Shown: positions 5,977 to 61,947 of the stretch, one piece after another
How positions within the stretch are numbered: position 1 is the first letter of the stretch
Layout: every line of letters starts with the position of its first letter
Origin: Eledone cirrhosa
Lineage: Eukaryota
Assembly (NCBI GenBank): GCA_964016885.1
Contig: OZ024741.1
Span: 75,082,001-75,146,000, forward strand
DNA length: 64,000 nt
Reading direction: 5' to 3'
Position numbers and translations under genes: made by a program
Notes under the pieces: model-generated
Told to the model about the DNA's origin: nothing
Seen by the model: only the letters and a program-made list of their open reading frames with translations
The model's database searches: none

Positions 5977-8900
5977 CTTTTTATGCAGCTGTCATCCTTC
6001 ATACGCATCACATGTCCATACCAACGCAACCGCCTCTCCTGCACACAGCATTTGATTCCTCTTATGCTCAGTCTCTCTCTCAATTCATTTATGCTTTGTC
6101 GTTCGCGTATATTACTGTTACACATCCATCGGAGCATGCAGGCTTCGTTTCTCTCTAATCTACGTAAGTCTTCCACCTCAGCGCCCAGGTCTCACTACCA
6201 TGCAACATCGCTGTTCGGATACACGCATCATACAGTCTGCCTTTCATTTTGAGGGAGAAGCCTTTTGCAGCTAGCAGTGGTAGTAGTTCCCTAAACTTCT
6301 TCCATCCCGTTCTTACCCTAGTTATTGTACTTTCTGAGCACCCACCTCCGCTGCTAATTCGGTCACCTAGGTAGCAGAAGCTGTCTACTATTTCTACACA
6401 GCCCACCCTGAGATTGGTGGTACTTGTTTCCTGTGGCTGTTTGCTGCTTGCTGTCCCAGCACAGCTGCTGCATGTGAAGCCTACATTCTTAATTAAGCTT
6501 CCTGAGATCCCGCTACATCTCTTGTGTACCCATTGTTTGCATTTGGGGCAGAGAATGGAGTTCCTACCTACACCTTTCCTACATACTGAGCAAGGCCATT
6601 TCCTGAGGGGATCTGGGTTCTGTTTTCTCGTCTACTTACAAGGACCTTAGTCTTTGTCATGTTGACTTTGAGACCCTTTCTTTCTAGTCATGGCTTCCAA
6701 GTTTGGAATTTCTTCTCTAGTTCTACCATAGATTCAGCTATAAGTGCGAGGTCATCAGCATACAGGAGTTCCCATGGGCATCCGGTCTTAAACTCCTCCG
6801 TTATTGCCTGCAGGACTATGATGAACAGGAGGGGGCTAAGAACAGAGCCCTAGTGGACCACAACCTGTACGCTAAATTCCTCGCTATACTCATTGCTAAT
6901 CCTAACTTTGCTGACTGCTCCCCTATACATGGCTTGTACCGCTTTCACAAGCCATTCATCTACTCCTAGTTTTCTAAGAGCCCACCAGATTACAGCACGT
7001 GGAACTCTGTCAAAGGCTTTCTCAAGATCGACAAATCCTGGTAGAGTGGCTTACTTTTAGCTAGGTACTTTTCCTGTAACTGCCTGACAAGGGAGAGGGC
7101 ATCAGTGGTGCCTCTTCCTGGTACAAACCCAAATTGGATCTCGTCTAGTTTCACCCGGTCCCTAATCAACTGTGCTATAACTCTTTCTGTTACTTTCATG
7201 ACCTGGTCCATCAGCATTATACCTCTATAGTTTCCTCTATCTAGTGTATCACCTTTACCTTTGTAGCAGTTGACAATGATGCTACTGCACCAATCTTTTG
7301 GTATGACACCTTCTAGTATTACCTGGTTAACAATACGTGTGGTTATAGTGTGACCTACAGACCCAGATGCCTTCAATATCTCGGCAGCTATACCCGATGG
7401 ACCGGTTGCCTTCCCCACCTTCATATCTTTGATTGCCTTATTTACTACGCTGCTGCTGACTTGTACTGCTGGCCCCTCTATAGGGTCTACTTGGGGTAGG
7501 GTCTCTTCTTCCCATGCATTCTCCTCATTTAGTAATCTATCATACTCATTTAGTAATCTATCATGACTCTTCCATGCATCTTTCTTCTCAGCACTTGTGA
7601 GGGCAAGCTCACCTTTATCATTCCGGATACACTTCTCTCCAATGACATCACAATTCTCTCTGACACACTGCCTCGCAATCTTGAACACCTCCTGTTTCTG
7701 GTCCTCACGTTGCAAAACATGCTTGAATTTTCTATCCTCTGCTTACCTCCTAGCTAAGTATACTTGTCGCCTAGCTTCCCTCTTGGTCTCTATGTAATGT
7801 ACCCTGCTCCCCCCGTTCTTCCATTCTTTCCATGCCTGTCTCTTGGCCTTAACTGCCTCATCTACCTTATTGTTCCACCATCAAGTCACTCTCCTCCTGC
7901 TTGTGGTCTTACTCCAGCCACAAACCTCATCCGTCGCCTCTAGTAAGTTATTTTTTAGGAACTCCCAGTTCTCTTCTACATTGAATGTCTTTATCTGTTC
8001 TTCTTTACTGTCGTAGGCATTGAGTAAAATATCTTTAAATCTGTTACTGGTTGAGGGGTCTTTCAGCTTCCAGATCTTTCTTCTCCAGGTTGGCCTGTTT
8101 CCAGGTTCATCTAGTTCTGACTGTGAGGTCGCTGACAACTAAGCTATGTTGGGATGTACATTCCTCACTAGGGAAGGCTTTTCTGTTTATGACCGTCCAT
8201 CTGTCACGTCCTCTGATGAGGATACAATCTATCTGACTAGAATGCTCTCCTGATCTATAGGTGATCAGGTGGTTGTCGGGTTTTTTGAAGTTTGTGTTAC
8301 ATATCGACATTTCATTGGCCTCACAGAATTCTAGAAGTCTGAATCCTTCCTCATTTCTTGTGCCAATCCCATGGCTTCCATGGACTCTATTGAAGCCGTC
8401 GCAGTGTTTACCTACGTGTCCGTTAAAATCTCCTGCGATTATTAGGAAGTCATTGTCGTTTGTTAGAGCAGTAGTATGCATTAGGGACTCGTAAAACCTA
8501 TCCTTAAGTTCGTCTGGCAACCCCGATTGGGGTGCGTAAGCTGATATTATTGTGGTAATTGTTTTATTCAGGACTAGTCTGAGTTTAATGATTCTTGCAG
8601 TTCCCCTGTACACTGATATTACTTTATCTACCCACTTGTCAGCTAGTAGTATACCTACACCACCCATCCCATCGTCATTTTCCACCCAGAAAAATTTGTA
8701 GCACCGACTTTTTCCTACAAGGACTCTAGCAGACTCTCCCCTCCATCTAGTCTCTTGCACACAGCATACATCAATTTCCTTTCGCTCTAGCATTTCTACG
8801 ATTTCTCCTGCTTTTCCTTTCATTGTGCTTACATTGATGGTACCAACTCGGAGTTTTGGGCATTTGTCGACCCTCGTAGGGAAGGGTCTCTGGATTGGCG

Positions 8901-53049: not shown

Positions 53050-53403
53050 ATCATCATCATCATCATCATTATCATTTTACATCCGCTTTTCCCTGCTTGC
53101 AAGGGTGGGACGGGAACTGATTCTGGCTTGATTTCTACAGCTTGATTCACTTCCTAACACCAACCTCATTTACAGTGAGTGCTGGGTGCTTTTTTTCCGT
53201 GGCACCTCCACGACCACTTTGCAGTGGAATGATAGGGACTGGGACCTCAGTCACTATCATCTCATTTCTACAGCTGAGTAAACTGGAGCAATGTGAAATA
53301 AAATGTCTTGCTCAAGGAAACAACACATCACCCAGTCTGAGAATTGAACTCACAACCTTTCGATTGCAAGGCCAATGCTCTAACCACTAAGCCATGTGCC
53401 TCC
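53050..53403 (-). mobile_element. tRNA-derived SINE with RTE-derived tail (family B), internally shortened
   Basis: Reverse-complement homologue of 61378-61818, with a (CAT)n tail. Confidence 0.85.
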
Positions 53404-54907: not shown

Positions 54908-55103
54908 ATTGGCAGTATCGGTAGAAGGTCGGACGCCATGCTTTGACGCATAGAGTTATGGCCCTTGCCATTCTGAGTTCAAATCCCGCCGAGGTTAACT
55001 TTGCCTTTCATCTTTACGGGGTCGATAAAATGAAGTACCAGTAATGCACTGGGTAATTGCTGGCCTTGTGCCAAAAGTAGAAACAATTATTATTATTATT
55101 ATT
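54908..55103 (+). mobile_element. Family-A SINE with (ATT)n tail
   Basis: Homologous to 23618-23802. Confidence 0.9.
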
Positions 55104-55230
55104 TCTTTTTATTACATCCTCTGTTTTTTGTTATTTTTACACGCAGAAATGCCCATTTGTACCGTCCTGTATTGTCCTGTACTGTCCTTAATGTCTACTT
55201 TGTGTAAACCCTTGTGGTTAATAAAGAAAG

Positions 55231-55263
<33 letters not shown>
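55104..55263 (+). mobile_element. Extremely 5'-truncated copy of the Tx1-like element (3' UTR + ATT tail)
   Basis: Aligns to ~61193-61350 (acatcctctg...acacgcagaaatgcccatttgtaccgtcctg...taaacccttgtggttaataaagaa). Confidence 0.92.
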
Positions 55264-55584
55264 TGTTGTTATTCCTTGAATCTCAGTCATTGATGTTGGT
55301 TAACTGGAAAGTCCGTTGGAATGAATATCAAGCCACTACCTGCAGCCTCAGATATTCAGGACGTATCGGAGGGTTCTTGCTGTTCCAAGCAAGCATGCCT
55401 TTTGAAGCATTCCAAAAAGCGTGAAGGGGCCGATTTTCTTTAACCATCCCTGGAAACTTTTGGAGATAGTCCCCAGTGCGCCTATGACAATCGGGATCAC
55501 TTTGACTTCATGGCAGTTCCAAATCCTTTTCACCTCCCACTTTAGGTCCTGGTATCGGTTAATTTTCTCCCTCTCCTTCTTTCG
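55264..55584 (-). mobile_element. R4/Dong-clade non-LTR 3' fragment (RLE C-terminus)
   Basis: KEREKINRYQDLKWEVKRIW...VIPIVIGALGTI...LQKACLLGTARTLRYVL, with the stop ending at 55348. Short UTR, and (TAA)n on both sides. Confidence 0.8.
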
Positions 55585-55824
55585 ATTATTATTATTATTA
55601 TTATTATTATTGAATGCCATGGTTGACGGAGGCTCGGCTCTGTAAGGTATAGTAATTTTTGACCGTTGAAACAATTGTAAATTGTTTAAAACTTGAACCA
55701 AATTGTTGATAAAGACACCCTCCTCCTCGTGAGAGGGGTCTTTCTGTCCGTTATTTGGCCCTTCGGGGTTGAATAACCAGTTATTGGGGTTTTGTACCCA
55801 AAATTTCATTTTAAACAAAAAAAC

Positions 55825-57600
55825 ATGGCTACGAAAAAGAAATTTCATACGTCACTCCCACTCATTCCGTCTTCTTCTTCCTCAATCATCACTACAGCAG
55901 AGAGAAGATTGTCTCTCTCCCTCCCTTCTTTAAATGTGTCTCTCTCCCTCCCTTCTCTTTCGCAAGCGACGAAAGAAAAGAAAAGTCTCGTGCAAAGCGT
56001 GCAAGGTTTCTCCACGACGACGACGACAGCGACGAAACAGGTGTGCGGGAAATACGAAAACCCAGTTCATTCGTCTGACGTCAGGAATAATAGCAGTAGC
56101 AGCCGTAATAACAACAGCAACAGTGACAATGAAAACAACAGTAGCAGCCGCAACAGCATCACCAGCAGCATAAACAACAACAGCATTAGCAGCAGCAACA
56201 CCAACAACAACCACAGCAACAGCGGCGGAGGCAGTAGTCGTAGTACCTGCAGCAACAACAAAAGTACCAGCAGCTCTGACGATAACAACAACAGCAGAGA
56301 AAAACCAATCTCATTTGCAGGTATTGCGAAAAACTTGGAAACAATCCTCATAACAAATGAGGAATTAGAGGAAGCGAAGAAGATGGTGACAAAGAACGGA
56401 CACCGAGCAATCTGCAAGGCAGCGAAAAATTTTTTCGAAACCCAAGAGCACTGTACGGTCACGTACCGTACAGTAAGTACAAAATCCCGTAGGGTGGAAA
56501 GAGCCACAGAGGCCCAAATACAAAAAGCCTTGGGGTCTGTGTGGCAGAGGAAAACGCACATCACCCGAGGCAAAAAATACGCCACCGTAGACGTACTTTT
56601 TGCCACACCCCAGGAGGCAAAGGCCCAATCAGTAGTGACCCTAAGGAGCGAGGAAATGGTGTTGGTGCCCTCCTACTGCGGGCAAAAAATTGTGAGGGTC
56701 AAACTGACCCACGTCCCCCCCGGAATGACCCCTTCTTGGCTGGCCGCGTCTGTCCTCGTCGGAATCGAGGACAAAACAACTGTACTGCAAGTACAGAAAA
56801 AAGTAAGAGAAGATTGGGTCGGCTCCTCCATTGAGATGCTAATCCAAACCAACCAGGAGTGCATCGAAGCTATCCCGGATGTGATAGACTTCGATAACGG
56901 CACTCAACTGCCCATAAGTGTTGAGGGCAAACGCCCGAAATGCTTTCGCTGTGGATCGAAGACTCACCTCAGGGCCTTCTGCAACGAGAAGACCTGAGAA
57001 AGGAGAAAACCCCCCTCCTTCCGAATCCGGCTCCACGGCTACCAGCAACAGGACAAGCGGCAACCAGGAACGATAGGTCCGTGGCACCCATACCCACTCC
57101 ACGGAAATCAAAGACAGCAGCAGCAGTGGAAATATTAACAACAACAACAGCAATACCAAATGCAGCTGCAACAGAGACTCCAGTGCAAACATCACCAACA
57201 ACAACAAGTGAAAGAGTGGAGCTGGTACCCCTCCCCGACCTTACAGAATCAGACATGGAGTGTGAGGTGGGAGAGGGATGGCAAAAGGTCGCAAGAAGGC
57301 ACAAACGCAGAAGCAGACATTTCACAACAGGACTACATAATACCAGCACCAATCAAAACGCCAACTAACATAAGACTGCTAAAAATAGCACAGAAACAAT
57401 ACACAAACATTAAAACGAAATTTCCCAACGCAGTTGGTGATTTCAGGGACCTAGGAGGAACCATTAATCGAAGAGTATATTCAGACATTCTCTTAGAAGA
57501 GCCGACGACCAGCCGAAGGGACGATTCAACGGTCCCTTCACCAGACGATCAAGTGAAAAGGGATGTAAAAACCATCCCTCCTCTACCAAAAATACGGTAA
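55825..57600 (+). CDS. Tx1-like ORF1 (nucleic-acid-binding, zinc knuckle); reading frame broken after 56997
   Basis: ATG at 55825, an N/S-rich tract and CFRCGSKTHLRAFC (CX2CX4HX4C). Probable continuation in frames 56940..57368 (WQKVARRHKRR) and 57160..57600. Confidence 0.75.
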
Positions 57601-57635
57601 GTGGTCTTTCCCATCTTTTCCACTCTATTTTAAAC

Positions 57636-60600
57636 ATGACCTCACTCAGAATAGGCAGCATAAATGCGCGTGGCTTGGGGTCGTCATGGAAGCAGGGTCA
57701 CCTGCTCAACGACCTCAGGTCACTAAACATAGATGTAGTGGCCATCAGCGAGACCAGAATCTCCGAAGCACGGGCCTTCGCACCGATCTTCGGCGGCTAC
57801 GATGTGTACGCATCTCCCAGCCGTCCTGGATCCGGTGGAGGAGTTGCTGTACTTTTTCGGAGAGGTTTGGATCTCGCCATACGGGCCATCTTCCTGGACC
57901 CAGAGGGTAAGCTGGTGGTGCTGGACGTGACCAGCGGAGACGGGCAAGCTTTCAGGCTAGTGGCCGTCTATGCCCCGACAGGAGCAGGGCGGCCTGATTT
58001 CTTCCGGCGTCTGGAGACCTTTCTTGGAACGTCCCGCTCTTTAGTGTTAGTGGGCGACTGGAACGGGATCTTAGATGCACGCTGGGACTGTGTGGGATTA
58101 GCGGATAGGGGTGGAGGGTGCAAGAGCCTCACCAACCTGCTCAGGCGTTTTGAACTGTCTGACAGGTACCGATTGGATTTCCCGAATGTGCCAATGTGGA
58201 CTTGGACAAACCGCATAGGGTCATCCAGATCATATCTAGATAGAGTATTTTGTAGGGAAATAGATAGGTCTAGCATAGGCTGTCCACAATTCAAGATAGT
58301 CAGCTACACGGACCACAAATTCGTGATCTGTGTGCTTGACTTAGATAGGCTTCATAGACGAGGACCCGGCTACTGGAAGCTAAACGCGTCCTTACCAGCG
58401 CGCAAGGCCTACAGAGACCGGATTAGCGAACTAGTTAAGCGGGCGTTGACGGGGGCCATCGTCAACAACAAGTGGTGGTTTGCTCTGAAAAGAGCGATTA
58501 GAATAGAATCGATTAGGTTTAGTAAGGCTTTAGCAATAGAGAAAAATAGAGCAGAGGGAGAACTAGTTAGAAAATTAGACGAGGCGCTTAGCAAAGGCAT
58601 TGCGACCGACGTGCTTGCGGCGAAATTGGCCCTTGACCAATTCTTCAATGCAAAGCACGAAGGCTGCGTTGTCAGAGCTAGGGTGCGTGCTCTCAGACAC
58701 GAGGGGACGAAAGCCGTTCAATGGGCCCGAGTGGCGGAGGCGCGTCGTGGCAACAAAGCCACGATCCGGTCTTTGGTGGACCACGACGGGCGCATGCTAC
58801 TCGATCCCGGGCAAATGTGTGAAACTTTTCAGCGACACTTCGCTCAGCTGTTCGGGGGCAGCGGGGGGCCGGGTAGAGGGATGGACTTTAGTGTCTACCT
58901 CGACGGGCTGCCGCGGCTCTCGGCCACTGAGGCGAGGTGTTGCGAAAAGCCGATAACAGCCGCTGAAGTACGGGAGGCAATGACTGGCTGCACAAGGGGT
59001 AAATCGCCTGGTTTGGATGGTCTGCCCTATGAACTTTACGTACAGATGCCAGACTTGTTCGGAGGCCTCTTGGCGGACGTCTACTGCAACTGGCAACAGA
59101 ACGGGAGAATTCCCAGTTCTGTGAGCCGAGGAGCGGTGGCACTGCTGAGAAAGGATCCGAACAAGGGGGATAACATAGACAATTTCCGGCCCATAACTCT
59201 GCTAAACACAGAGTTTAAGATTTTGGCCAAGGTGCTAGCAAAGAGGTTGGCGCTTGTCGTTGGTGGTCTGGTGGGAGAGGCGCAGACATGCGCCATTCCC
59301 GACAGATCCATCCACGACAACCTCCACCTCATGCGATACATCGTAGAGAGGGTAGCTAGGGAACCTGGCACGGGTGGGTCCTTGATCAATTTAGATCAGT
59401 CGAAAGCTTTCGATAGGGTCGACCATCGTTACCTAGCGGCAGTCCTGAGGGCGGCTGGCTTTGGGCCCGTCTTCAGAGGCTGGATCGCTGCCATGCACAG
59501 CGACATCTGCTCTGTGGTGAGAGTGAACGGTCACCTGTCGGAACCGTTCAACATCATGCGCTCGGTCCGCCAAGGATGTCCCCTCTCGTCCCTCTTGTAC
59601 GTATTGACTCTCGAGCCATTACTGCACAAACTGGAGACGTTGAGGGGAGTCCCGCGCGAACTAGGATGCGGAAGATCCGTGTCAGCATATGCGGACGATG
59701 TCACCGTAGTGGTGTCGAACGCCAAACACATCGAGGCGATCGGCACTACACTAAGAGAATACGAAGCGGTGACAGGAGCAATGATCAACCAGGAAAAGTC
59801 AGTGGGCCTGCAGCTCGGCACCTGGAGAGGCAGGTCCATGCCGTCCAACAGCGTCGTCGGGCGCTGGACGGACGGACCGGTTAAATTGCTAGGGGTCTGG
59901 TTCGGTCCGGACCTCCAGACGGACAAAAACTGGGACGAGGTGACGAGCAGGGTGGCTTCTCTCACCCAGAAATGGGCGGAGAGGAAGCTATCCCTGAAAG
60001 GTCGAGCGGAGGTGGCTAACGCGTACATCGCGTCTGTCATCTGCTACCGCCTAACCGTCGTACCTTGTCCTAAGCCTCGCCTGACTGCGCTGGAGCGTTT
60101 ACTCTTTCGCTTTTTGTGGAAGGGACGTGCTCCGATGGTCAGGCGGTCCATCTGTTGTCAACACCCGCTACGTGGAGGGCTGGGCATGCCGTGGCTGATG
60201 ATGCGCAGGCACGCGCTCAGGCTACGACATCTCCACCTCTTCCTCGACGGTGATCAGGTGTGGTCGCCGTTTGCTAGACGCGTTTTTCCCCAGCTCGTTT
60301 CCTTGACGGAGCTGCAGTCCTGGGTCAAGCGAAGACCGAGAGGGAGCGCCTGGAGACTGGAATGTCTTCAGGCGCTCACAGCCCTCGACCAATCGGGCAA
60401 TGTGATCGGTGGAAACTCCACCTCGGCGTTCTATAGAGGATTAGTGGAGGGGAAGAGCGACGACGTACTTGGGGAAACTCTAGGCGTCGACGAAAATCAA
60501 CTAGCCAATCTCTTCGGAAGAACTTTCGGGCCAGGGCCTATGGACAACTTCCAGAAATCTCTGGCCTGGCAGTGCTACCGAGGAGCCTTGCCAGTTCGGG

Positions 60601-61055
60601 ATAAACTCTACAGGCATGGAGGTGCCGTCAGCCGGGCATGTCCGAGATGCGCGCAGGGCGACGAAACCGTCCTGCACGCACTCGTCCAGTGTCCGAAAAT
60701 TGCTGACTTGTGGGTTTATGTCGAACACCTGCTGTCGCGTTTAGGACGGATCCAGCTATCATCTGAGTCCATCGTGAGGATTGCCCCGCCCTCCTCCTTT
60801 AGCCGGGAAGGGCAGGCAGTTTTTATCTGTCTGGTGGCCATGGCGAAAGAGATAGTATGGTGGACACGTTTGAAAGGGCTGAAGACGAGCACTTACCTCT
60901 TCGGTGATGCTCTGATTGACTTTTTCAAATTTCATTTGAAAAGGAAAATCAGAGTAGAGAGGGAAGTGCTCTCTTCCCAGCATTTTGTTGAAAGATGGGT
61001 GAGAGAAGCAAGAATGGCCCGAGTGAATGGGCCGACTCTGAGTATATATCTGTAA
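57636..61055 (+). CDS. ORF2: APE endonuclease + reverse transcriptase + C-terminal zinc finger, 1139 aa, intact
   Basis: EN motifs SINARGL, ISETR, VYAP, VGDWN, SYLDRVF and TDH; GPGYWKLN; KSPGLDGL; FRPITLLN; LDQSKAFDRVDH; RQGCPLS; AYADD; GGLG; CPRC-x5-ETVLHALVQC. Confidence 0.96.
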   Translation: MTSLRIGSINARGLGSSWKQGHLLNDLRSLNIDVVAISETRISEARAFAPIFGGYDVYASPSRPGSGGGVAVLFRRGLDLAIRAIFLDPEGKLVVLDVTSGDGQAFRLVAVYAPTGAGRPDFFRRLETFLGTSRSLVLVGDWNGILDARWDCVGLADRGGGCKSLTNLLRRFELSDRYRLDFPNVPMWTWTNRIGSSRSYLDRVFCREIDRSSIGCPQFKIVSYTDHKFVICVLDLDRLHRRGPGYWKLNASLPARKAYRDRISELVKRALTGAIVNNKWWFALKRAIRIESIRFSKALAIEKNRAEGELVRKLDEALSKGIATDVLAAKLALDQFFNAKHEGCVVRARVRALRHEGTKAVQWARVAEARRGNKATIRSLVDHDGRMLLDPGQMCETFQRHFAQLFGGSGGPGRGMDFSVYLDGLPRLSATEARCCEKPITAAEVREAMTGCTRGKSPGLDGLPYELYVQMPDLFGGLLADVYCNWQQNGRIPSSVSRGAVALLRKDPNKGDNIDNFRPITLLNTEFKILAKVLAKRLALVVGGLVGEAQTCAIPDRSIHDNLHLMRYIVERVAREPGTGGSLINLDQSKAFDRVDHRYLAAVLRAAGFGPVFRGWIAAMHSDICSVVRVNGHLSEPFNIMRSVRQGCPLSSLLYVLTLEPLLHKLETLRGVPRELGCGRSVSAYADDVTVVVSNAKHIEAIGTTLREYEAVTGAMINQEKSVGLQLGTWRGRSMPSNSVVGRWTDGPVKLLGVWFGPDLQTDKNWDEVTSRVASLTQKWAERKLSLKGRAEVANAYIASVICYRLTVVPCPKPRLTALERLLFRFLWKGRAPMVRRSICCQHPLRGGLGMPWLMMRRHALRLRHLHLFLDGDQVWSPFARRVFPQLVSLTELQSWVKRRPRGSAWRLECLQALTALDQSGNVIGGNSTSAFYRGLVEGKSDDVLGETLGVDENQLANLFGRTFGPGPMDNFQKSLAWQCYRGALPVRDKLYRHGGAVSRACPRCAQGDETVLHALVQCPKIADLWVYVEHLLSRLGRIQLSSESIVRIAPPSSFSREGQAVFICLVAMAKEIVWWTRLKGLKTSTYLFGDALIDFFKFHLKRKIRVEREVLSSQHFVERWVREARMARVNGPTLSIYL

Positions 61056-61315
61056 ACTAAAGGTGGAAAACTGGGAGAGGGCACTTGCCTTGGTGGTCAG
61101 GGTCATTGTGGCTTTTTACTGGGCTTTCTCCACAAATGTCCCTCCGAAGTCTCCCCCCTATTGGGGAATTTTTCATTGTTATTTTCATTGTTATTTTTGT
61201 TACATCCTCTGTTTTTGTTTTTTTACACGCAGAAATGCCCATTTGTACCGTCCTGCATTGTCCTGCACTGTCCTTAATGTCTACTTTATGTAAACCCTTG
61301 TGGTTAATAAAGAAA

Positions 61316-61373
<58 letters not shown>

Positions 61374-61377
61374 GTGA

Positions 61378-61818
61378 AGGCACATGGCTTAGTGGTTAGA
61401 GCATTGGGCTTGAAATCGAAAGGTTGTGAGTTCAATTCTCGAACCAGGTGATGTATTGTTTCCTTGTGCAAGACACTTTATTTCACATTGCTCCAGTTTA
61501 CTCAGCTGTAGAAATGAGATGATAGATCTGGAGTCCCTATCATTCCACTGCAAAGTGGTCGTGGAAGTGCCACGGCAAGAAAGCACCCAGCCCACACTGT
61601 AAAGTGGATGTGTAGGTGCCATGGAAAAAAAGCACCCAGCACTCACTGTAAATGAGGTTGGTGTTAGGAAGGGTATCCAGCTGTAGAAATCAAGCCAGAA
61701 TCAGTTCCTGTATGAGCAAGACAAGGTCAGTCGACCGGACATTGCCTACAACAGGACAACCCATCTAACCCATGCTAGCGTGGAAGGACGGACGTAAAAC
61801 GGTGATGATGATGATGAT
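61378..61818 (+). mobile_element. tRNA-derived SINE with RTE-derived 3' half (family B)
   Basis: A box tggcttagtgg and B box gagttcaattc. Segment 61545-61810 matches the RTE 3' UTR at 32642-32902, and it ends in an (ATG)n tail. Confidence 0.88.
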
Positions 61819-61835
61819 TACTATTATTATTATCA

Positions 61836-61947
61836 TTACTGACTATATTACATTGGAAGCACCAGTTCTTGTCTGATCACTAAAGTTAAGTAATGTTGAA
61901 CTTAGTACTTAGATGGTGACCTCTTGGGAGACCTAAGTGCTTTAAGC
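61836..61947 (+). pseudogene. Degenerate 5S rRNA-derived sequence
   Basis: gcaccagttcttgtctgatcactaaagttaag...ttagtacttagatggtgacc...tggga...gtgct matches the eukaryotic 5S layout (A, intermediate and C boxes), with CpG-type decay and small deletions. Confidence 0.75.

Follow-up and report, generated by a model that had tools for sequence, protein, structure and literature searches.

A young Tx1-type retrotransposon family associated with ATT microsatellites in the genome of Eledone cirrhosa

We analysed a stretch of 64,000 nucleotides of the Eledone cirrhosa genome (contig OZ024741.1, positions 75,082,001 to 75,146,000; hereafter the window) that contains a damaged copy of a young, high-copy Tx1-type non-LTR retrotransposon family. 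Members of the family lie in ATT repeats. We consider it probable that they do so because the endonuclease encoded by the second open reading frame (ORF2) nicks the AAT strand at ATAAT and the element RNA is copied from the nick. The features discussed are collected in Table 1.

Table 1. Features of the repeat cluster, by position in the window, and the joints found at other loci
Feature	Position	Strand	Remarks
High-copy SINE	54908..55085	+	Copies insert at ATTAT; possible non-autonomous passenger
Separate 5'-truncated copy, same Tx1-type family	~55104..55231	+	AAAGC-ending subtype; between ATT runs 55086-55103 and 55232-55273
Dong/R4-type element, 3' end	55274..55584	-	Antisense, 5'-truncated, (TAA)n either side
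(ATT)9	55585..55611	+	5' flank of the Tx1 element; also the 5'-truncation point of the Dong/R4-type piece
Tx1-type non-LTR retrotransposon, type A, 5706 bp	55612..61317	+	Both ends present, ORF1 damaged
ORF1 region	55825..57600	+	Three pieces: 55825-56997, 56940-57368, 57160-57600
ORF2, 1139 aa	57636..61055	+	APE endonuclease, reverse transcriptase, C-terminal zinc-binding region
3' UTR	61056..61317	+	AATAAA near its end, without poly(A)
(ATT)18	61318..61372	+	3' flank of the Tx1 element; a tRNA-like SINE head (61385-61442) comes next
Tx1-Dong/R4 head-to-head joints			L096, L127, L133, L135, L197, L205, L220

The window copy has the 5' and 3' ends common to its siblings of ~6025 bp. As the first-pass annotation had described, it starts directly after (ATT)9 and ends in about (ATT)18 with no poly(A), despite an AATAAA. 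The description of ORF2 as uninterrupted and carrying the APE and reverse transcriptase (RT) catalytic motifs also held: the frame is open over all 1139 aa, with the domains Exo_endo_phos, RVT_1 and zf-RVT and the motifs SETR (residue 38), GDWN (140), YLDR (200), TDH (225), QGCPLS (646) and YADD (685). ORF1, which has 697 aa in intact copies, matched no Pfam family above the cut-off, and a C-x2-C-x4-H-x4-C knuckle can be read off its sequence. A 25-mer from the 3' UTR has 6715 exact matches across the genome.

The elements of the cluster follow the order SINE, ATT, truncated copy, ATT, antisense Dong/R4-type 3' end, ATT, long copy, ATT and tRNA-like SINE. The short copy had been proposed to be an independent truncated copy bounded by ATT on both sides, and it is real: it shares 91.7% identity with the 3' end of the long copy across the aligned stretch and has the terminal subtype AAAGC, where the long copy has AAATC. 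Two features of these flanks had been overlooked. The ATT run at 55086-55103 sits after a SINE tail, and the antisense piece is itself flanked by (ATT)9 on one side and by the run at 55232-55273 on the other. We take this piece to be of the Dong/R4 type on the basis of its motifs and of RT-bearing frames at other loci; its minus-strand frame (55348-55848) matches the C-termini of longer frames of this kind. Elsewhere in the window there are a 5S rRNA-like match at 61835-61947 and weak tRNA-like matches at 53333-53396 and 61385-61442, all of which are likely SINE heads or pseudogenes.

We compared the window copy with its relatives. Natural siblings encode an ORF1 of ~697 aa and an ORF2 of 1139 aa, and both frames were whole in 11 of the 26 type-A full-length copies sampled on contig C1 and in 4 of the 6 best hits, which had been fetched deliberately. 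Against one intact natural copy (L152), the window copy is 99.4% identical (32 mismatches in 5703 columns), with 5 amino acid differences in ORF2. It has lost one base at ~56992, which shifts the ORF1 frame after 390 aa, and 320 bases at ~57313. The first-pass annotation had called this copy full-length and possibly active; that view is not borne out, as ORF1 carries both the frameshift and the 320-bp deletion and the two frames are thus not both intact. The extra base at 56992 is present in contigs from all four runs consulted, one with the species label of the window and three with other labels, and the single-base loss could be an assembly slip. The deletion hardly is one. In two of the four runs one contig crosses the deletion point with ~318 additional bases, and in the other two the listed pieces end there. 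The window copy is probably non-autonomous.

The family itself is young. The aligned intact-length copies are 96-99.8% identical to L152, most of them >99%, and a 257-aa RT stretch is identical and free of stops in each of its 148 best-scoring matches, which represent the best candidates only. There are two types of copy. In type B, a diverged ORF1 with a 5' end unrelated to that of type A is joined to an ORF2 region ~96% identical to the type-A one; the type is an ORF1 swap with an unchanged target. In type-B copies (L063, L064, L071, L109 and others) the 5' UTR and ORF1 differ and the junction lies ~85 bases before the ORF2 start; the endonuclease regions of the two types differ by 14 synonymous and 7 non-synonymous codon changes. 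We counted 4840 5' ends and 9315 3' ends in the genome, and the share of full-length copies is unusually high. Many copies stand head to tail in tandem arrays with an ATT spacer and a period of ~6.05 kb. Additional related families in the genome are 69-79% identical in RT.

The association of insertions with ATT/AAT, which had been proposed from the window, is genome-wide. We counted ends as exact pattern matches over the animal's own 3.0-Gb genome. The 5' ends stand directly after TATTATT in 2436 of 2509 type-A cases (97.1%) and in 2210 of 2331 type-B cases (94.8%), and three listed exceptions that we fetched are ATT runs bearing one changed base. The 3' end is fixed, reading ...AGAAA(T/A/G)C and then ATT: ATTA comes next at 8635 of 9315 3' ends (93%) and is missing from the other 680. 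Reversed-pattern controls gave 0 matches. Copies for inspection were chosen by exact 25-30-mers, all within the first 117 Mb of contig C1; choosing by such matches favours young copies. Among these, full-length copies followed (ATT)3 in 60 of 60 cases in the first sample and in 26 of 28 in the second, and the two misses are ATT runs with one substitution. The window holds 38 (AT)n runs versus 6 ATT runs, yet among the junctions inspected none was an insertion into (AT)n alone.

Truncated copies are decisive, because 5'-truncated copies carry no leader. The first sample consisted of the initial 100 C1 matches to a 3' anchor and the second of 44 of 69 further type-A anchors, the other 25 being paired with a 5' end by position. 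A strict test required an 8-base ATT run within 15 bases of the junction. Before any row was dropped, 18 of 40 and 9 of 16 apparent truncations passed, against a background of 0.5-0.6% of window positions, so that truncated copies are enriched ~100-fold at ATT. The first-pass annotation had named non-ATT 5' flanks in most copies as the outcome contrary to its proposal. That outcome did not occur: 97.1% of type-A and 94.8% of type-B 5' ends stand after TATTATT, and 27 of 56 apparent truncations pass the strict test. We then removed 11 rows that were not truncations (L070, L072, L079, L089, L100, L102, L115, L130, L132, L143 and L206), owing to SINE or other insertions, inversion, internal deletion or duplication, and chimeras with related families, and three duplicates (L088, L126_7190 and L212). 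After this, 42 truncation junctions remained. An ATT run precedes 24 of them (23 recognised by script and L125 by eye) and is missing before the other 18; ATT targeting is therefore strong but not absolute. The 18 comprise seven that adjoin 5'-truncated antisense Dong/R4 pieces, two after (CTT)n, one after an ACT/ACC array, two with only a duplication beginning ATTA (L050 and L087), and six without explanation (L034, L056, L118, L131, L214 and L236). Six copies border (CTT)n or ACT/ACC arrays (L058, L082, L028, L106, L050 and L200), hinting at relaxed specificity or compound repeats. A published criterion calls a family target-specific if >20% of its flanks have one common sequence type (PMC4494074); here the shared flank is found at 95-97% of 5' ends, 93% of 3' ends and 57% of truncation junctions.

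Target-site duplications place the ATT in the target. Duplications with non-repeat letters in truncated copies are 16 bp in L092, 13 bp in L031 and 11 bp in L050, and each begins ATTA directly after the last C of the element; the target itself therefore supplied ATT. Such duplications are few: only 10 of the 120 copies tested have one with a non-repeat letter, most of them in tandem arrays or a minisatellite. The perfect 3' run is down to 3-6 bases in L106, L065, L050, L087 and L092, and a long ATT tail is therefore no fixed part of the element. These observations bear on the proposal that the element inserts at random with an ATT tail of its own encoding and is afterwards selected for, or passively accumulates, in repeats. 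Self-encoded triplet tails do exist, the I element ending in TAA (PMC3747384), but copies that are ~99% identical already have ATT on both sides. Together with the enrichment of truncated copies and the ATTA that the duplications put in the target, this leaves the proposal scarcely credible.

The neighbouring SINE, whose tail 28-mer has 133,053 exact matches, offers a view of the site in unique DNA. Among its first 30 copies (L242-L271), the tail is followed directly by an exact duplication of ≥9 bp in 20, against 35 of 870 in the control. The duplications are 11-21 bp long, with one longer within an array, and four of them are situated in ATT runs; 19 of 20 begin ATTAT, and 19 of 20 are preceded by C or T. 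The downstream run is ≤11 bases in 29 of the 30 copies, so the sites are mostly single ATTATs. The SINE thus displays the ATTAT signature of the Tx1 element in unique DNA, and the core motif looks like ATTAT, with arrays preferred and not required. The SINE tail is colinear with the end of the Tx1 element. Its likeness to the ends of types A and B is not significant, as internal windows equal the terminal score of 16 in 74 of 595 and 71 of 583 cases. For L029, an older relative, the terminal window ranks first among 133, a lead only. The Tx1 family may mobilise the SINE. SINE copies also lie inside three type-B elements (L079, L130 and L132), two of them at about one place in ORF1.

If single sites suffice, the element might build the arrays itself. 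Its RNA would then carry AUU repeats at both ends, and copying and slippage would make the microsatellite. In keeping with this, full-length 5' ends have the fixed phase ATT|G in both types, upstream runs are at least 18 bases long in 59 of 60 full-length copies while 8 of 57 downstream runs are shorter, and the SINE is found mostly at single sites. In L198 the ATT units in both flanks exceed what simple duplication accounts for, so some units come from element copying or from slippage at a later time. The contigs of the four runs contained no empty site. However, many truncated copies, which have no leader, follow runs longer than any duplication seen (L060, L105, L113, L204, L211 and L213), and the long element seldom has the clean duplications in unique DNA that the SINE commonly shows. 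On balance we regard array building by the element as unlikely to be the main explanation.

The Dong/R4 partners raise a different alternative. Seven truncated Tx1 copies each meet a 5'-truncated antisense Dong/R4 piece head to head, without intervening ATT, and six of the seven adjoining pieces end in (TAA)n inside an ATT array. The joints could reflect one event primed from both break ends, deletion during a second insertion, or later deletion. Dong/R4-type elements in this genome fall into two or more families that differ in their 3' ends (L037, L119, L197 and L220 versus L035, L042 and L127), all ending in (TAA)n. Such joints would be expected if the ORF2 endonuclease were unspecific, or if breaks were made by others, such as the Dong/R4 nuclease or the fragility of the repeat, and only AAT ends could prime on the AUU tail. 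We think this improbable. A specific staggered cut agrees with duplications of 11-21 bp that share their opening motif and mostly follow C or T, as in the SINE; the catalytic motifs of the endonuclease are intact; and the Tx1L endonuclease is sequence-specific in vitro (PMC1950540).

We therefore return to nicking by the ORF2 endonuclease, whose specificity for ATT we infer from sequence patterns. APE elements nick DNA and copy their RNA from the nick (PMC1950540, PMC4494074). In the case considered here, the bottom strand would be cut 3' of ATAAT, at a pyrimidine-purine step. The transcript would read past AATAAA into the downstream repeat and so carry AUU units, and these could pair with the freed AAT-3'OH, with priming starting within the repeat. 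Priming inside the repeat would explain the lack of a copied poly(A). The duplication would result from a second nick 10-20 bases further on. Arrays may be favoured because they offer many sites and longer pairing. Each insertion would leave ATT at both ends, so that arrays could stack the Tx1 element, its relatives, Dong/R4 elements on the opposite strand and SINEs.

We assessed the placement of the family among known elements, and the assignment to the Tx1 clade made in the first-pass annotation is supported by phmmer scores. The architecture is that of the clade, with two ORFs and an ORF2 made of APE, RT and a C-terminal zinc motif. For ORF2 the scores were 470 and 381 bits with two U2-flanked metagenome elements (Keno-type) and 261-328 bits with TX1-named and pol-like fish proteins, versus 183 bits with human L1 and ≤79 with R2; it is thus closer to the Tx1 references than to L1 or R2. 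Architecture and score together support a Tx1-type element. Among named proteins, one from Argonauta hians comes closest, at 73% in the RT region; an unnamed group follows at 50-54%. We built a quick tree of 56 rows and another of 28 rows and 858 columns, both made up without mammalian L1, Tx1L, Dewa or Mutsu and without a true L1 outgroup. In the trees the window family groups with Argonauta (support 100) and then with the unnamed group (100), outside a fish/turtle group (100), and deep nodes have support of 16-71. The fish/turtle group holds Q76IM4_TAKRU, Q76IM5_TETNG and a Danio pol-like protein, which we take to be deposits of the Kibi/Koshi study. Membership in the Kibi/Koshi lineage was rejected on this assumption, given that the fish/turtle group excludes the window family, so microsatellite targeting may have arisen separately. 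The Kibi/Koshi target, (TC)n or (TTC)n, does not fit either: the target here is ATT, with only the two truncation junctions after (CTT)n.

A scan of metagenomes yielded only distant relatives and no close one with informative flanks. Three of the distant ones are followed by snRNA sequences, U2 in two and U1 in one (L161 4675-4885, L162 5815-5977 and L164 9079-9233), and the U1-flanked relative may be a U1-targeting Tx1. A protein cluster search returned generic RT clusters only.

Several known systems resemble the window family in part. Kibi at (TC)n, Koshi at (TTC)n and crocodilian Tx1 families at (TTCC)n/(TTTC)n are likewise Tx1-type two-ORF APE/RT elements in microsatellites (PMC4494074, PMC3812793); the window family differs in its target unit, ATT. 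The U2-flanked elements score best among relatives with a visible target, but Keno targets U2 snRNA and the window family a microsatellite. Xenopus Tx1L and human L1 ORF2p share the APE-RT-zinc architecture and target-primed copying with the window family. L1 nicks TTTT/AA (PMC1950540), and the window family, unlike human L1, ends in ATT and not in poly(A). Dong, of the R4 clade, uses the same microsatellite and in this genome the same arrays. It has a single ORF, unlike the Tx1 family, and lies mostly on the opposite strand. Dong carries a restriction-like nuclease, a class that differs from APE; two classes of enzyme have thus arrived at this one repeat. Its specificity for (TAA)n has been described, and TAA is given as a target for Dong only in the relevant part of that paper (PMC3812793).

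We compared the ATT target with published accounts. The Tx1 targets reported include TC, TTC, TTCC/TTTC, U2, U5, 5S, satellites and transposons (PMC4494074). Neither 'ATT' nor 'TAA' occurs in the main text of that study, figure and supplementary target lists aside, and the portions available of five further papers mention no ATT-targeting Tx1 (PMC3747384, PMC4640811, PMC4758252, PMC5786205 and PMC8869645). L1-Tx1 and Dong-R4 elements have expanded in coleoids (PMC8967140), and Octopus vulgaris has 13 recently active L1-Tx1 and 5 Dong-R4 families (PMC13282606); the word 'target' does not occur in the available portion of the latter paper. Microsatellite targeting is an established habit of Tx1 elements, and the ATT target is new relative to the literature searched in these portions, Repbase and Dfam lying outside that search. 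Our guess is that there is a minor but real chance that the family or its target is already catalogued.

How elements choose microsatellites is described as not well understood (PMC3812793). Few APE retrotransposons are specific for microsatellites, and the family extends the set of their targets by one. In one genome, an APE element and a Dong/R4 element converge on one repeat from opposite strands. Many intact copies of 99% identity, a single ORF2 shared by two different 5' halves, and a SINE that exposes the cut site in unique DNA make the choice of a microsatellite, by nuclease preference versus RNA pairing, directly testable. More tentatively, and as a wider picture that we hold possible but do not favour, an independently evolved ATTAT-specific APE integrase lineage may drive much of the repeat turnover here. 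It would mobilise the SINE of >133,000 copies in trans, lay down and lengthen ATT microsatellites, share arrays with Dong/R4 elements of the opposite strand, and sometimes prime both break ends to give head-to-head Tx1-Dong hybrids. For the genome of this animal, the finding means that ATT loci are insertion hot spots and unstable markers.
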